From NCBI GenBank assembly GCA_016840465.1, contig JAEOSH010000066.1:1-10867 (forward strand): a stretch of 10,867 nucleotides of DNA, given 5' to 3'. Origin of the DNA: Candidatus Baldrarchaeum yapensis. GTDB lineage: Archaea > Asgardarchaeota > Baldrarchaeia > Baldrarchaeales > Baldrarchaeaceae. Position numbers and translations under genes: made by a program. The notes below the pieces were generated by a model. The model made no database searches. It saw only the letters and a list, made by a program, of their open reading frames with translations, and was not told where the DNA came from. How positions within the stretch are numbered: position 1 is the first letter of the stretch; every line of letters starts with the position of its first letter. Shown one piece after another: positions 781 to 10,025 of this stretch.

Positions 781-792
781 TCAAGTATATAG
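781..792 (+). promoter_or_regulatory. Putative archaeal BRE/TATA promoter for the DUF6884-GIY-YIG operon
   Basis: TCAAG-TATATAG lies about 25 nt upstream of a short leader that contains GGAGGT (817-822). Confidence 0.45.
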
Positions 793-830
793 CTACCTAT
801 CTGTCTATGCTATGGCGGAGGTTGAACGCA

Positions 831-1295
831 TTGAGCGTACTCTGCATCGTACAATGTAGCGATAGGAAAATCTGGGATAAGCACCCAGATATGGGGGCGG
901 TGAGAGCTAGAGACGCCTACACGGGCCTTTTAACGAAAACGGCTATTATATACGCAGAAAAATTTCACAAGAACTCGTGGGTTATACTATCAGCAAAATA
1001 CGGCTTCCTAAAACCAGATGACATCGTTCCCGGACCCTATAACGTCACCTTCAAAAGAAAGAGTACCGGCCCGATCAATGTAGAAGAACTGATAAGACAG
1101 GCGCAAGAGAAAAATCTCTATAGATACGACATAATAGTGGTACTCGGAGGTAAAGAGTATGCCGAGGTCGTGAAGAGGGTGTTCCCGAATAAGAAGATCA
1201 TAGAACCACTAAAAGGCCTCAGGTACGGTGAGAAAGTTAAGAAATTAAAAGAAGCTCTACTGGCGGAAAAACCACTCGTCGAGGAAAATTTATGA
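831..1295 (+). CDS. DUF6884-like protein (YaaA/DUF328-related family as I recall it), 154 aa
   Basis: Motifs CIVQCSxxK, A-x-D-A-Y-x-G, WVILSAKYGFL, YNVTF and VVLGGKEY match the DUF6884 pattern. Start moved from ATG 807 to in-frame TTG 831 because GGAGGT (817-822) lies 8 nt upstream. Confidence 0.7.
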   Translation: MSVLCIVQCSDRKIWDKHPDMGAVRARDAYTGLLTKTAIIYAEKFHKNSWVILSAKYGFLKPDDIVPGPYNVTFKRKSTGPINVEELIRQAQEKNLYRYDIIVVLGGKEYAEVVKRVFPNKKIIEPLKGLRYGEKVKKLKEALLAEKPLVEENL

Positions 1296-2179
1296 GCTAT
1301 AGAAGTAAATATGACAAATACTGGATTCAAAAAGTGGACGAGCTGATTAAAGCCGTTAATATAGCAAATACTAACGGCATCTCCATAATCAATATTAGTG
1401 ATATAGTAACCTACGGCGAACGAAAACCGGAAAGCTGGTGCGGCAAAATAATCCTGTGTAAAGATACTATAATAAGGGATAGCGCGCTGACGCATCTAAA
1501 GTCTCTCGGCAGGATTCTCCTTACTTACAGGGTCTTGAAAAACTACAATTCCTACTTCAGCTTCAAAATCTCAAGGGACCTTAAATTGGAAATAAAAAGG
1601 ATGAGCATAGACGTCATGACGAATCATCGTAGCTCTTCAGCGGCTGGAAAAGAACACAAAGAGCATCCAGTGATAAACAGAAAAACCAAATTTCGAGAAA
1701 CTCCATTAGGTGTGAACTGTAAATGCGACACGCTGTTCTGCGGCTTCCTGTGGCATGAATTATCCACACTAAAAGCCCATGACCTACCCAAAGAACCAGG
1801 TGTCTACGTGATAAGAATTATCAAGAAAGGTGAAGAAACCGAGAAAGCTAAACACAAATTAGAGGATGTTATCTCAAAAACAAACTGGAAAGAACTAATA
1901 AGCTATGTTAATTCAAGATTAAACAGAATCACCCGTATCGAGAACTGCCCAGTTATATACATCGGCTCCACATCCGATATCCGTACTAGATATAGGGATT
2001 TAGCTGGTATAAGACACACCGCGTTCTTCCCAATTTTGGCATTACTGCTCTGCGGGTGGGAACTTGATTATGGATTCAAAACAGTACCGTCGAAAAAAGA
2101 TGCAAAACATTTAGAGGACGAACTGAAAAGAAAATATGAAGACCTCCATGGAATGCTACCTGCACTTGTAGAGGAGTAA
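1292..2179 (+). CDS. GIY-YIG superfamily nuclease with an unrecognised ~100-aa N-terminal domain
   Basis: PGVY (G codon 1799), VIYIGST (Y codon 1958), downstream RxR and a C-terminal LEDELK...HGMLP helix. Start overlaps the upstream stop (ATGA, 1292-1295) and is preceded by GAGGA. Confidence 0.75.
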   Translation: MSYRSKYDKYWIQKVDELIKAVNIANTNGISIINISDIVTYGERKPESWCGKIILCKDTIIRDSALTHLKSLGRILLTYRVLKNYNSYFSFKISRDLKLEIKRMSIDVMTNHRSSSAAGKEHKEHPVINRKTKFRETPLGVNCKCDTLFCGFLWHELSTLKAHDLPKEPGVYVIRIIKKGEETEKAKHKLEDVISKTNWKELISYVNSRLNRITRIENCPVIYIGSTSDIRTRYRDLAGIRHTAFFPILALLLCGWELDYGFKTVPSKKDAKHLEDELKRKYEDLHGMLPALVEE

Positions 2180-2342: not shown

Positions 2343-2777
2343 TTATCCTAAAGCCCTCTCTATCAATTCGTAGTCTTCCTTCGGAATCTCCACCATTGCT
2401 CTCCTCAGGTATCCGCTCCACCTCTGCTTATTCTTTATGAAGGATAATTTCGGAACCAGTTCCTTAAAAAACACCGGTTTCTCGGCTATCTTTATCGGTT
2501 TTAGACGGACTCTGTTCGGAAATGAGTGCGTCCCCTTATAGGCCTTGAATATCGGGGTCGAGTCCTTATACACCTCCGATGTCGCCTCAAAGATGCCCAC
2601 AATGCGCGACGGAATAACCTCCTTGTCCATCTTCGTCTGCATAACGTAGAAGATCAGTCTGTCCCCCGGCCTCACCCTCTCTATCGTGCCCCTGAACCTG
2701 TCACTCACTCCCCAAACGTTGTGCTTCCGCACGACCTCCCAGTTCGCCTGCGTCGTCACGCAAATCCAGTACCTCAC
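2343..2777 (-). CDS. EVE domain protein (PUA-like, archaeal UPF0310 type)
   Basis: RYWICVT..NW....VWGV, VRPGDRLIFY, RIVGIFEATS, FPNRVRL and SFIKNKQRWSGYLRRAMVEI..EDYELI are hallmark EVE motifs. Likely start is GTG 2777 with a GGTGGGG site upstream (track start 2786). Confidence 0.9.
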   Translation of the reverse strand: MRYWICVTTQANWEVVRKHNVWGVSDRFRGTIERVRPGDRLIFYVMQTKMDKEVIPSRIVGIFEATSEVYKDSTPIFKAYKGTHSFPNRVRLKPIKIAEKPVFFKELVPKLSFIKNKQRWSGYLRRAMVEIPKEDYELIERALG

Positions 2778-2809
2778 ACACCCCACCCATCCCTATATCG
2801 CCCCCGCAG

Positions 2810-2818
2810 TATTTAAAT
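2810..2818. promoter_or_regulatory. Candidate bidirectional TATA box between EVE and DUF365
   Basis: Palindromic ATTTAAAT (2811-2818) is the only clear TATA-like element in the ~100-bp divergent gap. Confidence 0.45.
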
Positions 2819-2875
2819 CTGAAGAACACCACTTCCTCCTAAGAAGCATGAACACCAACCCCGCGGGGAGGAAAC

Positions 2876-3325
2876 ATGACTAAAATAGCCGGCGCAATAT
2901 TCCCCGTGCCCAGCAACCTCATCGGAAGAATACTGGACGAAAAGCGCGACGTCTTCATCAAACACCCCACCCTCTTCAAGGAACTGAAACCCGGAGACAA
3001 AATACTGTTCTACGCATCCGGAGAAATAAGAGCAATAGTTGGGGAGGCAACAATAAAGAAAATAGAGTTCATGACGGGAAAAGAGGCCCTCGAAAAGTAC
3101 GGAAGACGTCTGTTTATAGACGAGAAGGAGTTAAGAGACTACTCCAAGCCGCTGAGCGCAAGGAAGGGAAGAGGCGGCGCCCCGAGGGAAATAAAATACC
3201 TGGTCCTGGAACTCGAAAACATAAGAAGATACAAGAAACCGTACAAGCCCAAGCGGTTCATAACCGTCGGAGGAAAGTACCTCACCGAGAGCGAGTACAA
3301 AAACATCCTGTCACAGGTGGAATAA
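2876..3325 (+). CDS. DUF365 family protein (ASCH/PUA-like fold)
   Basis: GAIFPVP...RILDEKRDVFIK, LKPGDKILFYAS, IVGEATI, KYGRRLFIDEKEL and ITVGGKYLT match archaeal DUF365. GGGGAGG site at 2865-2871. Confidence 0.85.
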   Translation: MTKIAGAIFPVPSNLIGRILDEKRDVFIKHPTLFKELKPGDKILFYASGEIRAIVGEATIKKIEFMTGKEALEKYGRRLFIDEKELRDYSKPLSARKGRGGAPREIKYLVLELENIRRYKKPYKPKRFITVGGKYLTESEYKNILSQVE

Positions 3326-3509: not shown

Positions 3510-3962
3510 TTAAACGGCCTCAAGAATCAATGATCCACCCGTTTCGAATCTTCTCAGATATTCTGTGAAGATATCCCCTCGAATTTTCTTTCTAACAAGT
3601 TTAATGTTATGAGATACCATCGATGATAACTTTTTGGCATAAAGTATCCTCTTCACCATAGCCGTTATTCCCATCCTTCTTAGAAAATCCTCAACGTTGT
3701 CGAACTTCTCTCTCACTTCCTCCTCATCCCCAGGCCGTACAGTTCCGCACTTCAGTTCGAGCAAATAGATGGTATTTTGGGAGATTATTAAGTAATCGCA
3801 CACTTTCCTCATCTGTAAGTCCTTTACTCTCTTGTTCAAGCACCTATCGACTTTTACAACATATAACTCCCCAGACTCCGAAAATACCCTTACACCACAA
3901 CCTTCCTCCTCTTCCACACACAAATTTCCCTCAATTAAGCACTCCCTAAGAACTTCCGGCAC
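3510..3962 (-). CDS. Small PD-(D/E)XK-like nuclease, partner of the upstream ABC-type ATPase
   Basis: KVCDYLII...IYLLELKCG gives D..ExK. Probable start is GTG 3962, overlapping the ATPase stop by 17 nt. The track start (4028) reads through ATPase codons. Exact start uncertain. Confidence 0.65.
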   Translation of the reverse strand: MPEVLRECLIEGNLCVEEEEGCGVRVFSESGELYVVKVDRCLNKRVKDLQMRKVCDYLIISQNTIYLLELKCGTVRPGDEEEVREKFDNVEDFLRRMGITAMVKRILYAKKLSSMVSHNIKLVRKKIRGDIFTEYLRRFETGGSLILEAV

Positions 3963-5346
3963 CTGAGGATAAATGTGAGAGGGTGATGAGTCTTGCCTCC
4001 TCCCCGTAGAGGTCCTCGGCAACCTCATCCATCTCCGGAAGCTTTTCTATAGACGGTGGAGTGACCTTCACCTGTTCGGTAACGCTACCATCACCGTCCC
4101 ACCGCATCCAGTAAATCGCAAGATCCTCTGGCCTTAATTCGTATTCTCGACTAAGACCTAGTTCTTTTAATTTCTCGTCCGGTATCTTCCCCAGAGAGCA
4201 AAGATGTGCAAACACGGTCGGAAATATCATGCTATGAGTCGTTATCAGAATGCTAATATTCCTCCTCGCAACTTTGGCAAATAACTTTGCTAACAGCACT
4301 TGCGCCTTCGGATGAACATGCGCCTCCGGCTCCTCCATAATGAGAGACCGACCCGGGGTGATCTTGCGTAAGGCAAGGTATAAGGGGGCGAGCTCGGCTA
4401 TCAGTGATGATGCTTTATCCAAGGGCAACGAGATGCCTTCTCTCTTATAAATCAGCCTAAGATCCCTCGTTACCTCCACTGTTCCCTCCAACACTTGTTC
4501 AAGGTCCCTAACTTCATCAATACCCACTTGCTTGCTGGGCATCTCCGGTTCCATCAGCAACTCGGTGAGCATATCCGCCGTTATCCTCGATATGTGAAAG
4601 CTTTCTCTTGATATCTCCTCAATCAACTGCTTAAAGCTCCTCGGTAAACTTAAAAGCTCTGGCAAGCTGGCTTTTATATAAGAGGTCAGTAGTGGCCTAT
4701 AAGCCCTGAAAAGCCCCGCTCGCTCGGCTAACAAGTATATTGGATCCTTAAATGTGAATCTTTCAGAAATTTTTTGTAGTATTTGCTCTAAATTGCCCAT
4801 GGATAAGATTAAAGACGTCACAGTCCTTGCGGCCGTTTCCGTATCCCCCTCTTCCGTACCGACAGCCTCAATTATCTTCTTTATTGACTCACAACCCTGC
4901 AATATCTCCCTTTCAATATCACTCGAGAATTTAATATCAACCTCGACATCCTCTCGTGTACCCCTAATTAGCACCTTAACGGGCTCGCTATCGAGCCTTA
5001 TCAAAAAATTATTAGACCCCCACCTCACAGCAGCATCTAGCGGCGTGAATACGCGAAGAACCTCCTCCTTCACAACCTCCTCGTAAGATTTTACGATTGT
5101 CTCCACCACATCCCCTGCAAATGCACTAACCCCGGAACCACCACCCGAAATTCTCAATGCAAGCTTCATCAGCAACTGTAAGACCGCTTTTTGAGAAAAA
5201 CTCCTCCCCAAGGCGTAAATTACCGACGCCAGATATGACTTCCCCACATTGTTTCTCCCTAATAGAACAACAATGCGACGAAGTTCGATTTCTGCGGATT
5301 TTATGGGACCCAGATCCTTAACTTCCAACAACGCCCCTGCAGACAT
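3946..5346 (-). CDS. ABC-type ATPase (AAA_15/AAA_21-like), defence-associated
   Basis: Walker A GRNNVGKS, YLLAERAGL, degenerate signature ASSLIAELAP, Walker B/D-loop LIMEEPEAHVHP, H-loop ITTHS. GGTGA site at 5355-5351. Confidence 0.9.
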   Translation of the reverse strand: MSAGALLEVKDLGPIKSAEIELRRIVVLLGRNNVGKSYLASVIYALGRSFSQKAVLQLLMKLALRISGGGSGVSAFAGDVVETIVKSYEEVVKEEVLRVFTPLDAAVRWGSNNFLIRLDSEPVKVLIRGTREDVEVDIKFSSDIEREILQGCESIKKIIEAVGTEEGDTETAARTVTSLILSMGNLEQILQKISERFTFKDPIYLLAERAGLFRAYRPLLTSYIKASLPELLSLPRSFKQLIEEISRESFHISRITADMLTELLMEPEMPSKQVGIDEVRDLEQVLEGTVEVTRDLRLIYKREGISLPLDKASSLIAELAPLYLALRKITPGRSLIMEEPEAHVHPKAQVLLAKLFAKVARRNISILITTHSMIFPTVFAHLCSLGKIPDEKLKELGLSREYELRPEDLAIYWMRWDGDGSVTEQVKVTPPSIEKLPEMDEVAEDLYGEEARLITLSHLSSGAGSS

Positions 5347-7042: not shown

Positions 7043-7420
7043 TTAACGTGCTTTCCATTTGAGCAGTAACATGGAAATTTCATCGAGTACTTCTAGGAGC
7101 GATATAGGATATGCTTCTATCACTCTGCCATCTGCCAAATGCTTATGATGGGGATAGCTACTCAGTTCTTTATGGTGAGGCGCATTATCATATCTAAAAA
7201 TTAGGTTGTTATCGCGATCTGTATAATGAAATCTGTAGGAGATTCTTTCAAGTTTTTCTTCTTCGGAAACTATGTACTCTAGGAATGTGAGCTTTGAGCC
7301 ATCAATGAATACTATGGTTCCCCGTAGGACTAGACGTGTTGGAGCCCGTCGCTCTATGCTGATAGATGATAGTGATATTAACGGCTTGAGCAACCTTAGT
7401 TTTTCCTCAACTCTTCCCAC
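7043..7420 (-). CDS. DUF6516/TumE-family putative toxin
   Basis: FIDGSKL..LE, SYRFHY...NLIFRYDNAPHH..LSSYPHHKH is the characteristic DUF6516 motif set. GTG start with GAGGAG upstream, overlapping the antitoxin stop by 14 nt. Confidence 0.85.
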   Translation of the reverse strand: MGRVEEKLRLLKPLISLSSISIERRAPTRLVLRGTIVFIDGSKLTFLEYIVSEEEKLERISYRFHYTDRDNNLIFRYDNAPHHKELSSYPHHKHLADGRVIEAYPISLLEVLDEISMLLLKWKAR

Positions 7421-7715
7421 GTACTCCTCTAATGCTATCTCTGATCACCTTTCTGAGTTCCTCATATTCCTCCTTAGCCTTCTCGAGAAAAACAAGCTCC
7501 CCGTACCACGCCATATAGTCCTCATTATCACCCAGTAGTCCCTGACGATACTTCTCCATGAACTCACGGGAACTCATGCCGTACTTTGACTCGTACTTTC
7601 TGATTTTCTCCTCCGTGGCGGAAATCTCCATCGCGAGTCTTCTGAGGGAGTCTTCAAGCGCCCTGACAACCATCGGGAGAATTTTCCTAGGCACCCTTAC
7701 CTCCGCGTAAGACAC
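7407..7715 (-). CDS. Putative antitoxin of the DUF6516/TumE toxin
   Basis: YESKYGMSSREF..KY..G.LGD..DY..W pattern of small helical proteins found upstream of DUF6516 genes. GTG 7715 has GGAGGT 7 nt upstream. ATG 7730 is an alternative leaderless start. Confidence 0.75.
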   Translation of the reverse strand: MSYAEVRVPRKILPMVVRALEDSLRRLAMEISATEEKIRKYESKYGMSSREFMEKYRQGLLGDNEDYMAWYGELVFLEKAKEEYEELRKVIRDSIRGVRGKS

Positions 7716-7744
7716 GCCAATAACCTCCATCACTATAACGCCCA

Positions 7745-7768
7745 CTTAGGCTTATAAACTCCCCTAAG
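7745..7768 (-). promoter_or_regulatory. TATA box flanked by an inverted repeat (candidate autoregulatory operator)
   Basis: TTTATAAG (7758-7751, minus strand) lies inside CTTAGG-N12-CCTAAG. Confidence 0.5.
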
Positions 7769-8236: not shown

Positions 8237-9499
8237 ATGAGGGTGGCATATTTGCCTCTGCTAAGAAATATTGAAATCAAAGATTTTAGAGCGATAGCGG
8301 ATGTGAAATTGGAACTAAATAGGGTGAATGTCATCGTAGGGCGAAATAACACCGGAAAAACCTCCATACTTGAAGCCTTGGCTCTCCTCCTCACCTCATA
8401 CAATGATTATAAGGACGCCCTCGGAAACGATGTCCTAAAATTAGTAGCGAGTAGAGGGGGATACACGTACCTTAAAAGGATTAACGCCGAGATGGCAGTA
8501 ATAAAAGCCCAGACCACTAATGGTGAGGAACTCTCTCTTTACTTCGTAACGGACAAAAACGGGCTTGAGAAGTTAAGTGACATTCCAATACTACAGAAAG
8601 CTGTCCATATCACCATAAGTAGGATTGTTGATGAGGAAATTGAGAAAAAAATTCGAGATTTGGAAGCAAAAATAGATGAACTGAAACGAAGGACTACACC
8701 TTTTTCTAGAACTTTCTTAACTTTTACACCAACGGGCCCTTACGATGAGGAATTAAATGAAACACAAAGACTTTTAAAATTGTATAAGGAGTCAAGAGAC
8801 GTCGCAGCAGAAAAAACTCGCCAAGAACTTCTCAGAAAATTCAGTTTCCTATCAATAGCACTCATTAATAACGAACCCATCGGGGCACACCTAACTATAA
8901 AGTCCGAATTCTATGAAGAAACGAAATCTGCCAAGTTTAAGGAGTATAAACCTCCTGTTTTGGTCAACGTTGGGCTGCAAAGAGATGCTCCAAATAAAAG
9001 TAGTATTTTAGATAAGTTGCCCGTCGACGTACTGATAGACGCACTGGAAAAACTAAAAAACATAATACCCTACTTCTATGACTACAGGAATGGAATGATA
9101 ATTTTTAACTACGCGGGTAGACGTGAAATCGTGCCACTGTCATCCGTTGGCGCCGGCTTTCTCACTTTCCTAGATACCCTCATAACAGCGATCTTAGGCA
9201 TCAATGTCAATATCATAGAAGAGCCGGAGATGCATATGCACCCAAGCTTTCTAGAACAGTTCTGCAGAGAGTTGCTCAACATAATCGACACCTACGATAT
9301 ACAATATATCATGACAACCCATAGCATTGAGTTCCTCCAATATCTCTTCGAATACGCGAAAGACTTGAGAAAACTCGATATCATTAACGTGATCAGAATG
9401 TACAGACTGCCAAATGGCGAAATAGACTACGAAGTCCTCAACGGAAAAGCCGCAATTGAGGAACTCGAAGACATAAAGGGCGATCTGCGTGGCCCGTAA
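8237..9499 (+). CDS. ABC-type ATPase (AAA_15/AAA_21-like) with a coiled-coil insertion
   Basis: IEIKDFRAI, Walker A GRNNTGKT, signature LSSVGAGF, Walker B/D-loop IIEEPEMHMHP, H-loop MTTHS. Heptad-like segment EEIEKKIRDLEAKIDELKRR. Confidence 0.92.
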   Translation: MRVAYLPLLRNIEIKDFRAIADVKLELNRVNVIVGRNNTGKTSILEALALLLTSYNDYKDALGNDVLKLVASRGGYTYLKRINAEMAVIKAQTTNGEELSLYFVTDKNGLEKLSDIPILQKAVHITISRIVDEEIEKKIRDLEAKIDELKRRTTPFSRTFLTFTPTGPYDEELNETQRLLKLYKESRDVAAEKTRQELLRKFSFLSIALINNEPIGAHLTIKSEFYEETKSAKFKEYKPPVLVNVGLQRDAPNKSSILDKLPVDVLIDALEKLKNIIPYFYDYRNGMIIFNYAGRREIVPLSSVGAGFLTFLDTLITAILGINVNIIEEPEMHMHPSFLEQFCRELLNIIDTYDIQYIMTTHSIEFLQYLFEYAKDLRKLDIINVIRMYRLPNGEIDYEVLNGKAAIEELEDIKGDLRGP

Positions 9500-10025
9500 T
9501 CCAGTACTCATCCTGTGCGAAGGTGAAAACGATTACAACTTCCTTAAAAGCATAATAACCGAAAGAACTACACTCTCCAACTACAACGAAAAGGACAGAA
9601 CGATCAGAAAAATGTGGATGAAAATATACCCGACAAACGCGATAATAATCGTGGAAGGAGGTAAAGAAAGACTCCTGCGAAACGCCTCCATACTCGTATC
9701 AAAAATGCGCAGCATCCCTAAAAACCAAAACATTCTCATCATGGTGGACTGCAACCGAAAAACTCCAAAAAGAATGTCAGAAGACATTCATAGAAGAATA
9801 TGTAACATCATAAACGACCCCACGAGATTCCCAACGCACAAACCAACAGCAGAACTCAAACCCCTAGGTTACTTCCACTTTCTGATACAAATTACTTACC
9901 CCACTAGCACCACCCTTTCCATGCATGTCCTAACCGTTCCACACTCGCTGGAATACTGGACAAACAAAGTAAATGACTTTAATCAACTCATACGGGAAAG
10001 ATGGGTCAAGGAACTATCGGAATAA
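9489..10025 (+). CDS. TOPRIM-domain protein (DUF3226/DUF4276/OLD-TOPRIM-like), ATPase partner
   Basis: ILCEGENDYNFL (EGxxD), IIVEGGK, ILIMVDCN (DxD position, codons 9747-9755) and a late SLEYW motif. The GTG start overlaps the ATPase stop by 11 nt. Confidence 0.75.
   Translation: MARNPVLILCEGENDYNFLKSIITERTTLSNYNEKDRTIRKMWMKIYPTNAIIIVEGGKERLLRNASILVSKMRSIPKNQNILIMVDCNRKTPKRMSEDIHRRICNIINDPTRFPTHKPTAELKPLGYFHFLIQITYPTSTTLSMHVLTVPHSLEYWTNKVNDFNQLIRERWVKELSE

Follow-up and report, generated by a model that had tools for sequence, protein, structure and literature searches.

The stretch of DNA analysed here (the window) is the whole 10,867-nucleotide (10.9-kb) contig (C33) from the 2.27-Mb, 96% complete genome of the archaeon Candidatus Baldrarchaeum yapensis, and our subject is a pair of adjacent genes, A and B, on its forward strand. 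The initial annotation had described two genes behind one TATA/GGAGGT leader, joined by an ATGA overlap, and each of these elements was recovered at its position (Table 1). The ATG of gene B (1292-1294) overlaps the TGA stop codon of gene A (1293-1295), and given this overlap and the shared leader the two genes form one operon. Gene A starts with the TTG at 831; an in-frame ATG at 807 was considered as a start and rejected, since its 8 additional residues are absent from all 33 aligned homologues, which begin at the position of the TTG. No tRNA genes were found within the window.

Table 1. Coordinates of the features of the two-gene operon in the window.
Feature	Position	Strand	Basis and remarks
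TATATA box, possible archaeal promoter element of the two-gene operon	786..791	+	read from sequence; 40-45 nt 5' of the TTG start; putative function
GGAGGT, Shine-Dalgarno-like element	817..822	+	read from sequence; 8 nt before the TTG of gene A
Gene A, 154-aa DUF6884 protein with YaaA-like fold and PDC-M57A match	831..1295	+	Pfam, PADLOC, AlphaFold2 (AF2) model
C-x3-K motif of A (Cys9...Lys13), putative active-site or base-contact residues	855..869	+	homologue alignment
LSAKYG motif of A, the family LSAxxG motif (Leu53-Gly58)	987..1004	+	homologue alignment
ATGA overlap, start codon of B over stop codon of A	1292..1295	+	read from sequence
Gene B, 295-aa DUF7664 + GIY-YIG nuclease	1292..2179	+	Pfam, homologues, AF2 model
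DUF7664 domain of B, residues 5-104	1304..1603	+	Pfam, 5.3e-17
GIY-YIG-fold nuclease domain of B, residues ~140-295	1709..2176	+	fold matches, conserved columns
Helical insertion in B nuclease between GVY and YIG strands, ~45 residues	1823..1951	+	AF2 model

Protein A belongs to the DUF6884 family, passing the Pfam threshold for PF21818 (64.7 bits, gathering cut-off 30, E 1.2e-17; 64.6 bits in a Pfam scan of the whole genome), and has a weaker match to the Pfam family YaaA. Both motifs that define DUF6884, CxxxK and LSAxxG (PMC11701544), are present as Cys9-x3-Lys13 and Leu53-Ser-Ala-Lys-Tyr-Gly58. A has 527 homologues, and among the 33 aligned C9, K13, S54, A55, K56 and G58 are invariant. The PADLOC model PDC-M57A (PDLC04712) covers residues 1-142 of the 154 at 3.2e-20, DpdC models match locally only (E 1e-4 to 7.5e-4 over approximately 60 residues), and phrog_5935, a phage family of unassigned function, is matched as well. 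The AF2 model of A (predicted local distance difference test score, pLDDT, 95) has the predicted YaaA-like alpha/beta ('cantaloupe') fold. Its best match in the PDB is Escherichia coli YaaA (5caj; Foldseek E 3.5e-4, probability 1.00), with Z 8.4 and a root-mean-square deviation (rmsd) of 3.9 Å over 140 aligned residues in the VIA comparison, followed by AF0587 (2q07; Z 7.3, 117 residues). The above-threshold Pfam match and the top structural match thus bear out the earlier suggestion that the first protein is DUF6884-like and related to YaaA. E. coli YaaA, whose fold binds DNA, is a stress protein of 258 aa that stands alone, lacks the context of the C-x3-K motif and has no coupled nuclease, whereas A has 154 residues and is nuclease-coupled. 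YfjM of Bacillus subtilis, a DUF6884 member like A (PMC11701544), has no coupled nuclease either. Sequence searches of PDB chains with B and with the A profile gave nothing useful.

Protein B carries DUF7664 at its N-terminus (PF24701, residues 5-104; 62.2 bits, above the cut-off of 27; 1.4e-17 in the whole-genome scan), followed by a disordered linker (residues 110-130) and a C-terminal domain whose model (pLDDT 83) has the GIY-YIG alpha/beta fold. T4 EndoII is the best fold match of this domain (Z 7.4, rmsd 3.4 Å, 105 residues), ahead of the N-terminal domain of UvrC (Z 6.8, rmsd 3.1 Å, 85 residues, 24% identity), PD-T4-3 (Z 5.5), I-TevI (Z 4.5), Eco29kI (Z 4.1) and Hpy188I (Z 4.0). The Foldseek list is likewise headed by the GIY-YIG chains UvrC and Eco29kI, at weak E values of approximately 0.1. 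No variation is seen at Y172 (of GVY), Y223 (of IYIG), R233 and H242 across 13 sequences, of which at least 90% also conserve E275; these residues follow the canonical order, and we assigned them as catalytic from that order and their conservation rather than from a superposition of individual residues. The AF2 model places an insertion of approximately 45-50 residues, with two helices (183-195 and 200-215), between the GVY strand (residues 170-178) and the YIG strand (221-227); W199, Y205, R209 and R212 of this hairpin are invariant. We read B as a putatively active, atypical GIY-YIG nuclease. Conserved cysteines also flank the nuclease core (window 1709-1726 and 1946-1948), C219 being invariant and C143 and C145 nearly so; the three could form a small metal site.

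The initial annotation knew of no named system with this pairing, a statement that does not stand: PADLOC-DB v2 already contains the candidate PDC-M57, in which component A is a DUF6884 protein and component B a GIY-YIG-type protein. PDC-M57 is one of 145 candidates that a guilt-by-embedding screen drew from genes lying within BREX, DISARM and type I restriction-modification loci (preprint of Payne et al. 2024, 10.1101/2024.01.29.577857). The nature of its component B follows from single-chain proteins that fuse DUF7664, a middle domain and YaaA/DUF6884. PDC-M57B matches the middle domain at approximately 1e-42, and this domain has the GIY-YIG motifs GIYFF, RVGT, an Arg and LEERL and overlaps Pfam GIY_YIG_2 matches; PDC-M57 is therefore a DUF6884 protein plus a GIY-YIG protein. 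Like the window pair, PDC-M57 has a small DUF6884 protein beside a GIY-YIG-type nuclease, and window A matches PDC-M57A. The second components differ. No PADLOC model, including both PDC-M57B models, matches gene B at E <= 0.01, and across the whole genome PDC-M57B (PDLC04713) matches nothing at E <= 10. In hhalign the nuclease domain of B and the PDC-M57B-type domain align with a probability of 1%, i.e., they are unrelated at the profile level, and when the B family is compared with P0192, one of the triple fusions, DUF7664 alone aligns (probability 98.3 for the two DUF7664 domains). Window B thus represents another GIY-YIG lineage, distinguished by its helical insertion, and it carries DUF7664 and follows A in an overlapping arrangement. 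As judged from sequence, the window pair is a variant of the catalogued candidate PDC-M57, new in its nuclease lineage and in DUF7664. The PADLOC PDC-M57 models would not call the window locus, since here a nuclease of another GIY-YIG lineage has taken the partner's place. The two-gene description of the initial annotation holds for the pairing itself, and it missed both the N-terminal DUF7664 domain and the non-PDC-M57B lineage of the nuclease.

The pair recurs. Among 5.8 billion clusters (90% clustering) we found only 13 near-length homologues of B; either of its domains is matched by 158 representatives. Each full-length B with a readable neighbourhood has A directly upstream and overlapping, in five distinct contexts including the window. 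One pair adjoins TnpB, a resolvase and a CcdA-PIN pair (L001/L002), another a Piwi protein (L003/L004), a third lies among the housekeeping genes for AspRS and ZnuABC (L005) and a fourth is in a Desulfurococcales metagenome-assembled genome (MAG; L060); all of these loci have overlapping A/B junctions. Since the flanks are unrelated between contexts, the A+B pair moves as a unit; phylogenetically, the A proteins of these pairs group in a single clade of the DUF6884 domain tree (support 99/97). Prediction of an A/B complex with two alignments gave a score of 0.00, which we take as evidence neither way. No relative of B was found in 2.9 million viral contigs.

The nuclease domain of B also occurs alone (150-190 aa) or behind a precomputed ScoMcrA_N domain (P0013). 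None of the eight stand-alone nuclease loci among GTDB species representatives has a DUF6884 gene within 3 kb, and in the metagenomic locus L011 a YaaA-like gene lies two genes away from the stand-alone nuclease. Coupling to A thus tracks the presence of DUF7664 across the examined loci. A 551-aa relative of B (P0134), without a DUF6884 neighbour, has a 267-residue unassigned N-terminal region in front of DUF7664 and the nuclease. This region (L017:4614-5414) shows no similarity to A and has no Pfam match; in the Atlas it falls among unnamed clusters of approximately 200 aa from Bacteroidota with faint PUA-like and Nmad3 leads, and it could serve as another kind of reader domain. The stand-alone nuclease is split over two or three frames in several copies (L063:2962-3498, L067:474-944 and L068:2936-3407), which look like pseudogenes, in keeping with a gene that is costly or toxic. 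Two relatives of B have a Piwi/pAgo gene no more than a few kb away (L008:2641-3969, near the ScoMcrA_N fusion P0013, and L003:1-624, near the A+B pair P0002), as would suit a defence island.

Fusions provide, from sequence comparison, what we consider the strongest evidence that A and B share one task. The distribution of DUF7664 in the phylum is patchy (4 of 400 genomes). In a set of 46 representative proteins with this domain, YaaA occurs in 9, DUF6884 in 6, AGOG in 4, GIY_YIG_2 in 3 and GIY-YIG in 3, with single fusions to HNH_2, NucS_C, Hjc, a caspase and a protein kinase. The combination of DUF7664, GIY-YIG and YaaA/DUF6884 in one chain is seen by Pfam in P0192 (588 aa, from locus L014 in one of these four genomes), P0206 and P0210. 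For P0195 Pfam gives DUF7664 and YaaA/DUF6884 and the PDC-M57B match gives the middle domain; in P0198 and P0235 the outer domains are assigned by Pfam and the middle domain by alignment only. The remaining architectures are DUF7664 + AGOG + DUF6884 (P0274), DUF7664 + AGOG (P0204, P0224, P0280), DUF7664 + HNH (P0269), caspase + DUF7664 (P0248) and DUF7664 + kinase (P0157). At L059, the gene after a DUF7664-AGOG gene opens with a DUF6884 N-terminus that includes the PC-x3-K motif. The co-occurrence pattern suggests that DUF7664 either serves YaaA-fold domains as an adaptor or senses a ligand. Because the GIY-YIG partner is conserved in other genomes and fused to YaaA/DUF6884 elsewhere, the partnership proposed in the initial annotation holds up as far as the recurrent pair is concerned, and the joint modification-linked nuclease function that it had put forward is reasonable.

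What A might recognise is best approached through its relatives. DUF6884 is widespread in the phylum (123 of 400 genomes), and we scanned the 29 best DUF6884 loci with home-made hidden Markov models (HMMs) and clustered the neighbours. A TGT-like gene of approximately 400 aa adjoins 9 of the 29 loci, 5 of which also have a UvrD-type helicase; the one TGT-like representative searched matches the DNA-guanine transglycosylase DpdA (7ui4) at 3.8e-53. QueC and QueD directly follow DUF6884 in two loci, a PDC-M57B-type gene adjoins two and a diverged AGOG gene one. DpdC, a member of the DUF328/YaaA family, converts preQ0-DNA to 7-amido-7-deazaguanine (ADG)-DNA (PMC10164549, PMC12839542, PMC5699537), and the earlier remark that A is related to 7-deazaguanine chemistry is supported on both counts. 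A third line runs via AF0587, which has a homologue (1e-38) in the C-terminal half of the genome's own ArcS-like protein. This ArcS-like protein has a TGT-like N-terminal half and contains the string PC-x3-KPY-x2-S-x2-H, with the same PC-x3-K spacing as A, and the substrate of ArcS is preQ0 at tRNA position 15 (PMC11298593). A direct sequence link between A and ArcS was considered and dropped: hhalign aligns the C-x3-K and LSAxxG regions of the DUF6884 profile at E 0.064 and a probability <1%, which is not significant, so the link is structural, resting on the AF0587 match and the AF0587-ArcS homology. A literature search for AF0587 returned unrelated papers only. These three independent lines (DpdA/QueC neighbours, DpdC kinship and the ArcS-type structural match) tie the fold to 7-cyano-7-deazaguanine (preQ0) in nucleic acids.

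The nearest relatives of A (approximately 149 aa, 52-57% identical; Thermococcus, Archaeoglobi, Methermicoccus, Staphylothermus and others) are encoded directly behind the gene for an AGOG-family glycosylase, overlapping it by 4 nt, and form the sister clade of the window type (support 96/93). The presumed reader can thus be partnered by an enzyme that excises bases or by one that cuts strands, and the coupling to AGOG suggests that the system is directed at a DNA base. In the AGOG + DUF6884 pair, found for instance in Thermococcus piezophilus and Methermicoccus shengliensis, the partner can carry DUF7664 (L059, P0204, P0224, P0280); it differs from the window pair in that this partner is a glycosylase and lies upstream, whereas that of window A is a nuclease and lies downstream. 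Of the characterised proteins, DpdC shares the YaaA/DUF328 superfamily with A, acts on 7-deazaguanine in DNA (PMC10164549) and shows weak HMM similarity (1e-4), and its place beside DpdA is occupied by DUF6884 genes in archaeal clusters. However, DpdC has approximately 310 aa and belongs to another Pfam family, while A is half that length and nuclease-coupled, and the Dpd system has DpdA and DpdB, neither of which was found near the window locus or elsewhere in the genome. Type IV GIY-YIG enzymes such as PD-T4-3 (PDB 9u75, specific for 5-hydroxymethylcytosine) are nucleases for modified DNA and match B in fold, but they combine nuclease and a different reader domain in one chain, whereas the window pair splits the proposed reader A from B.

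Taken together, these data lead us to read A+B as a split, modification-dependent (type IV-like) restriction module and a variant of PDC-M57, with a probability of approximately 45%. That the two proteins act together is very probable, and the module probably serves in conflict with viruses or plasmids rather than in housekeeping repair: the window is rich in conflict genes, and DUF7664 is patchily distributed and fused to caspase, kinase, HNH and NucS_C domains. In the mechanism that we infer, A, with its YaaA fold and invariant Cys-x3-Lys and LSAxxG motifs, would scan DNA and sense a modified base by flipping a guanine-derived base into its pocket; the likeliest target would be a 7-deazaguanine, e.g., preQ0, ADG or archaeosine in viral DNA. 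Through contact with A, B would be recruited or licensed via its N-terminal DUF7664, and the GIY-YIG domain, once activated, would cut the DNA in an anti-viral response, while the DNA of the host, which has no DpdA, would be unmodified and spared. The identity of the base is the more tentative part: by analogy with its relatives A may read a 7-deazaguanine, and this specificity is an extrapolation because the DpdA-linked proteins belong to the other half of the tree.

A bolder version, which we regard as somewhat unlikely, would make A+B the first restriction system against 7-deazaguanine viral DNA. A would capture the flipped base, possibly as a covalent thioimidate between Cys9 and the preQ0 nitrile, and DUF7664 would be a new adaptor or sensor coupling YaaA-fold readers to interchangeable effectors (GIY-YIG, HNH, PD-(D/E)xK, AGOG glycosylase, caspase and kinase). 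QueF, which forms a thioimidate with free preQ0, offers an analogy for Cys9. To our knowledge, no characterised host system specifically attacks 7-deazaguanine DNA. Many phages and some archaeal viruses replace guanine by 7-deazaguanines to escape restriction (PMC6884629). The locus, together with its fused and AGOG-paired relatives, gives a concrete and cheaply testable hypothesis and proposes a working role for two domains of unassigned function, DUF6884 and DUF7664.

Several observations weigh against the restriction module. For PDC-M57, a literature search found no report of a functional test, and in the preprint by Payne et al. (10.1101/2024.01.29.577857) seven systems were validated, the 145 PDC candidates being predicted only. 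The Pfam GIY-YIG score of B (PF01541; 17.7 bits, E 0.004) is below the cut-off of 22.6, and those of its relatives P0134 and P0007 are likewise weak. The GIY-to-YIG spacing of approximately 50 residues is abnormal, the usual value being approximately 10-11. The stand-alone copies without a nearby DUF6884 gene indicate that the nuclease is not strictly dependent on A, and the DpdA/QueC-linked DUF6884 proteins are mostly in other clades of the tree than window A. The role of DUF7664 is the weakest step. Fold searches found neither fold nor function for this domain, returning weak, mixed matches only (Stn1 winged helix at Z 4.2, R3H and the MCM N-terminal domain; Atlas rows with TM <0.5), and a literature search for DUF7664 found nothing.

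Further points against restriction are those that favour DNA repair or genome hygiene, an alternative that we consider unlikely. Here A would recognise a damaged, misincorporated or abasic site, for example an oxidised guanine, or preQ0 that was wrongly incorporated from the pathway to archaeosine, and B would nick next to it in the manner of UvrC or endonuclease V, with the AGOG-paired relatives using base excision instead. YfjM from B. subtilis extracts was enriched on DNA carrying abasic sites or ribonucleotides (PMC10220248), and its AlphaFold3 model flips a base into the pocket (PMC11701544). The commonest partner of the nearest relatives of A belongs to the 8-oxoguanine glycosylase family AGOG, YaaA is a stress protein, one of the best fold matches of B is to the UvrC nuclease domain, and the L005 pair lies among housekeeping genes. 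Against repair speak the rarity of DUF7664 in the phylum and of B homologues among the clusters searched, and the variable flanks, rich in mobile-element and defence genes. The caspase and protein kinase fused to DUF7664 are not repair effectors, and this type of pair was found embedded in BREX, DISARM and restriction-modification loci. Were the repair reading true, the module would be a new archaeal base-surveillance pathway.

Quite improbable is an abortive-infection or toxin-antitoxin-like arrangement, in which B would be a toxic nuclease restrained by A or by its own DUF7664 and released by an infection cue, not necessarily a modified base. The overlapping, tightly coupled genes, the abundance of TumE/TumA, AAA_15-Toprim and DarG-like sequences in the window, the resemblance of the DUF7664-caspase and -kinase fusions to abortive-infection sensor-effector architectures and the frameshifted stand-alone nucleases, as expected for a toxic gene, would all suit such a system. 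However, a nuclease and YaaA/DUF6884 in a single chain would be unusual for a toxin and its antitoxin, and the invariant Cys, Lys and Ser motifs of A and its kinship to base-acting enzymes favour a catalytic or reading role over that of a mere inhibitor. In the sister clade, moreover, it is AGOG, no toxin, that takes the place of the nuclease.

Restriction-modification of the Dpd type, with A completing a host self-mark as DpdC does and B restricting unmarked DNA, is very improbable. The weak match of A to the DpdC models (1e-4) and the presence of other DUF6884 genes of the phylum in dpdA clusters would agree with it. However, neither the cluster nor the 96%-complete genome contains DpdA, and the genome has no true QueC, only sub-family PP-loop matches, which makes a self-marking role of A unlikely. 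Its TGT-family matches are two only, one ArcTGT-like and one ArcS-like (open frames of approximately 660-700 aa), and there is no TGT gene within the fetched flanks of the L001, L003, L005 and L060 pairs. AGOG gave a below-threshold match in the same genome. Finally, it is hardly credible that B belongs to a mobile element as its free-standing homing endonuclease of the GIY-YIG type, with A as unrelated cargo: such enzymes are common, I-TevI is among the fold matches of B and the flanks vary between genomes, yet full-length B is always with A and fused to it elsewhere, neither an intron, intein or phage context nor a match among the viral contigs was found, and B has none of the known DNA-binding modules of homing enzymes by Pfam.

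The rest of the window holds further genes of interest. Back to back after the operon are two stand-alone PUA-like reader genes, for an EVE protein (2343-2786, reverse strand, 6.8e-23) and a DUF365 (ASCH-like) protein (2876-3325, forward strand, 1.3e-28). They were considered as parts of the module (2343-3325) and rejected, being absent from all homologous A+B loci. On the reverse strand at 3510-5346, a gene for an AAA_15 ATPase (466 aa; best PADLOC match PD-T4-4_A) overlaps that for a 172-aa protein with a weak match to PDC-M29B. Also on the reverse strand (7043-7745) are a gene for a TumE-like toxin (NCBIfam 1.2e-22, below the cut-off) and, upstream of it, one for a TumA-like antitoxin (4.8e-8), which are likely a toxin-antitoxin pair. 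On the forward strand at 8237-10025, a gene for an AAA_15/AriA-like ATPase (420 aa) overlaps that for a 178-aa DUF3226/OLD-type Toprim-like protein (best PADLOC matches AriA, PDC-M38A/B and AbiLi), and an open-ended frame at the contig edge (10438-10866, forward strand) resembles DarG, in the C-terminal part of the latter, as well as PDC-M19A (1e-7). We regard these conflict genes as neighbours and not as parts of the module, because none recurs beside other A+B pairs. A last observation comes from the survey of DUF6884 loci: in an archaeal MAG, an open reading frame upstream of a DUF6884-QueC-QueD operon (L028:3-1202, forward strand; G041 contig C209) matches animal CD36/LIMP-2 scavenger receptors at 6e-40, which is unexpected in an archaeon, and may be either contamination or a member of a rare prokaryotic CD36-like family.

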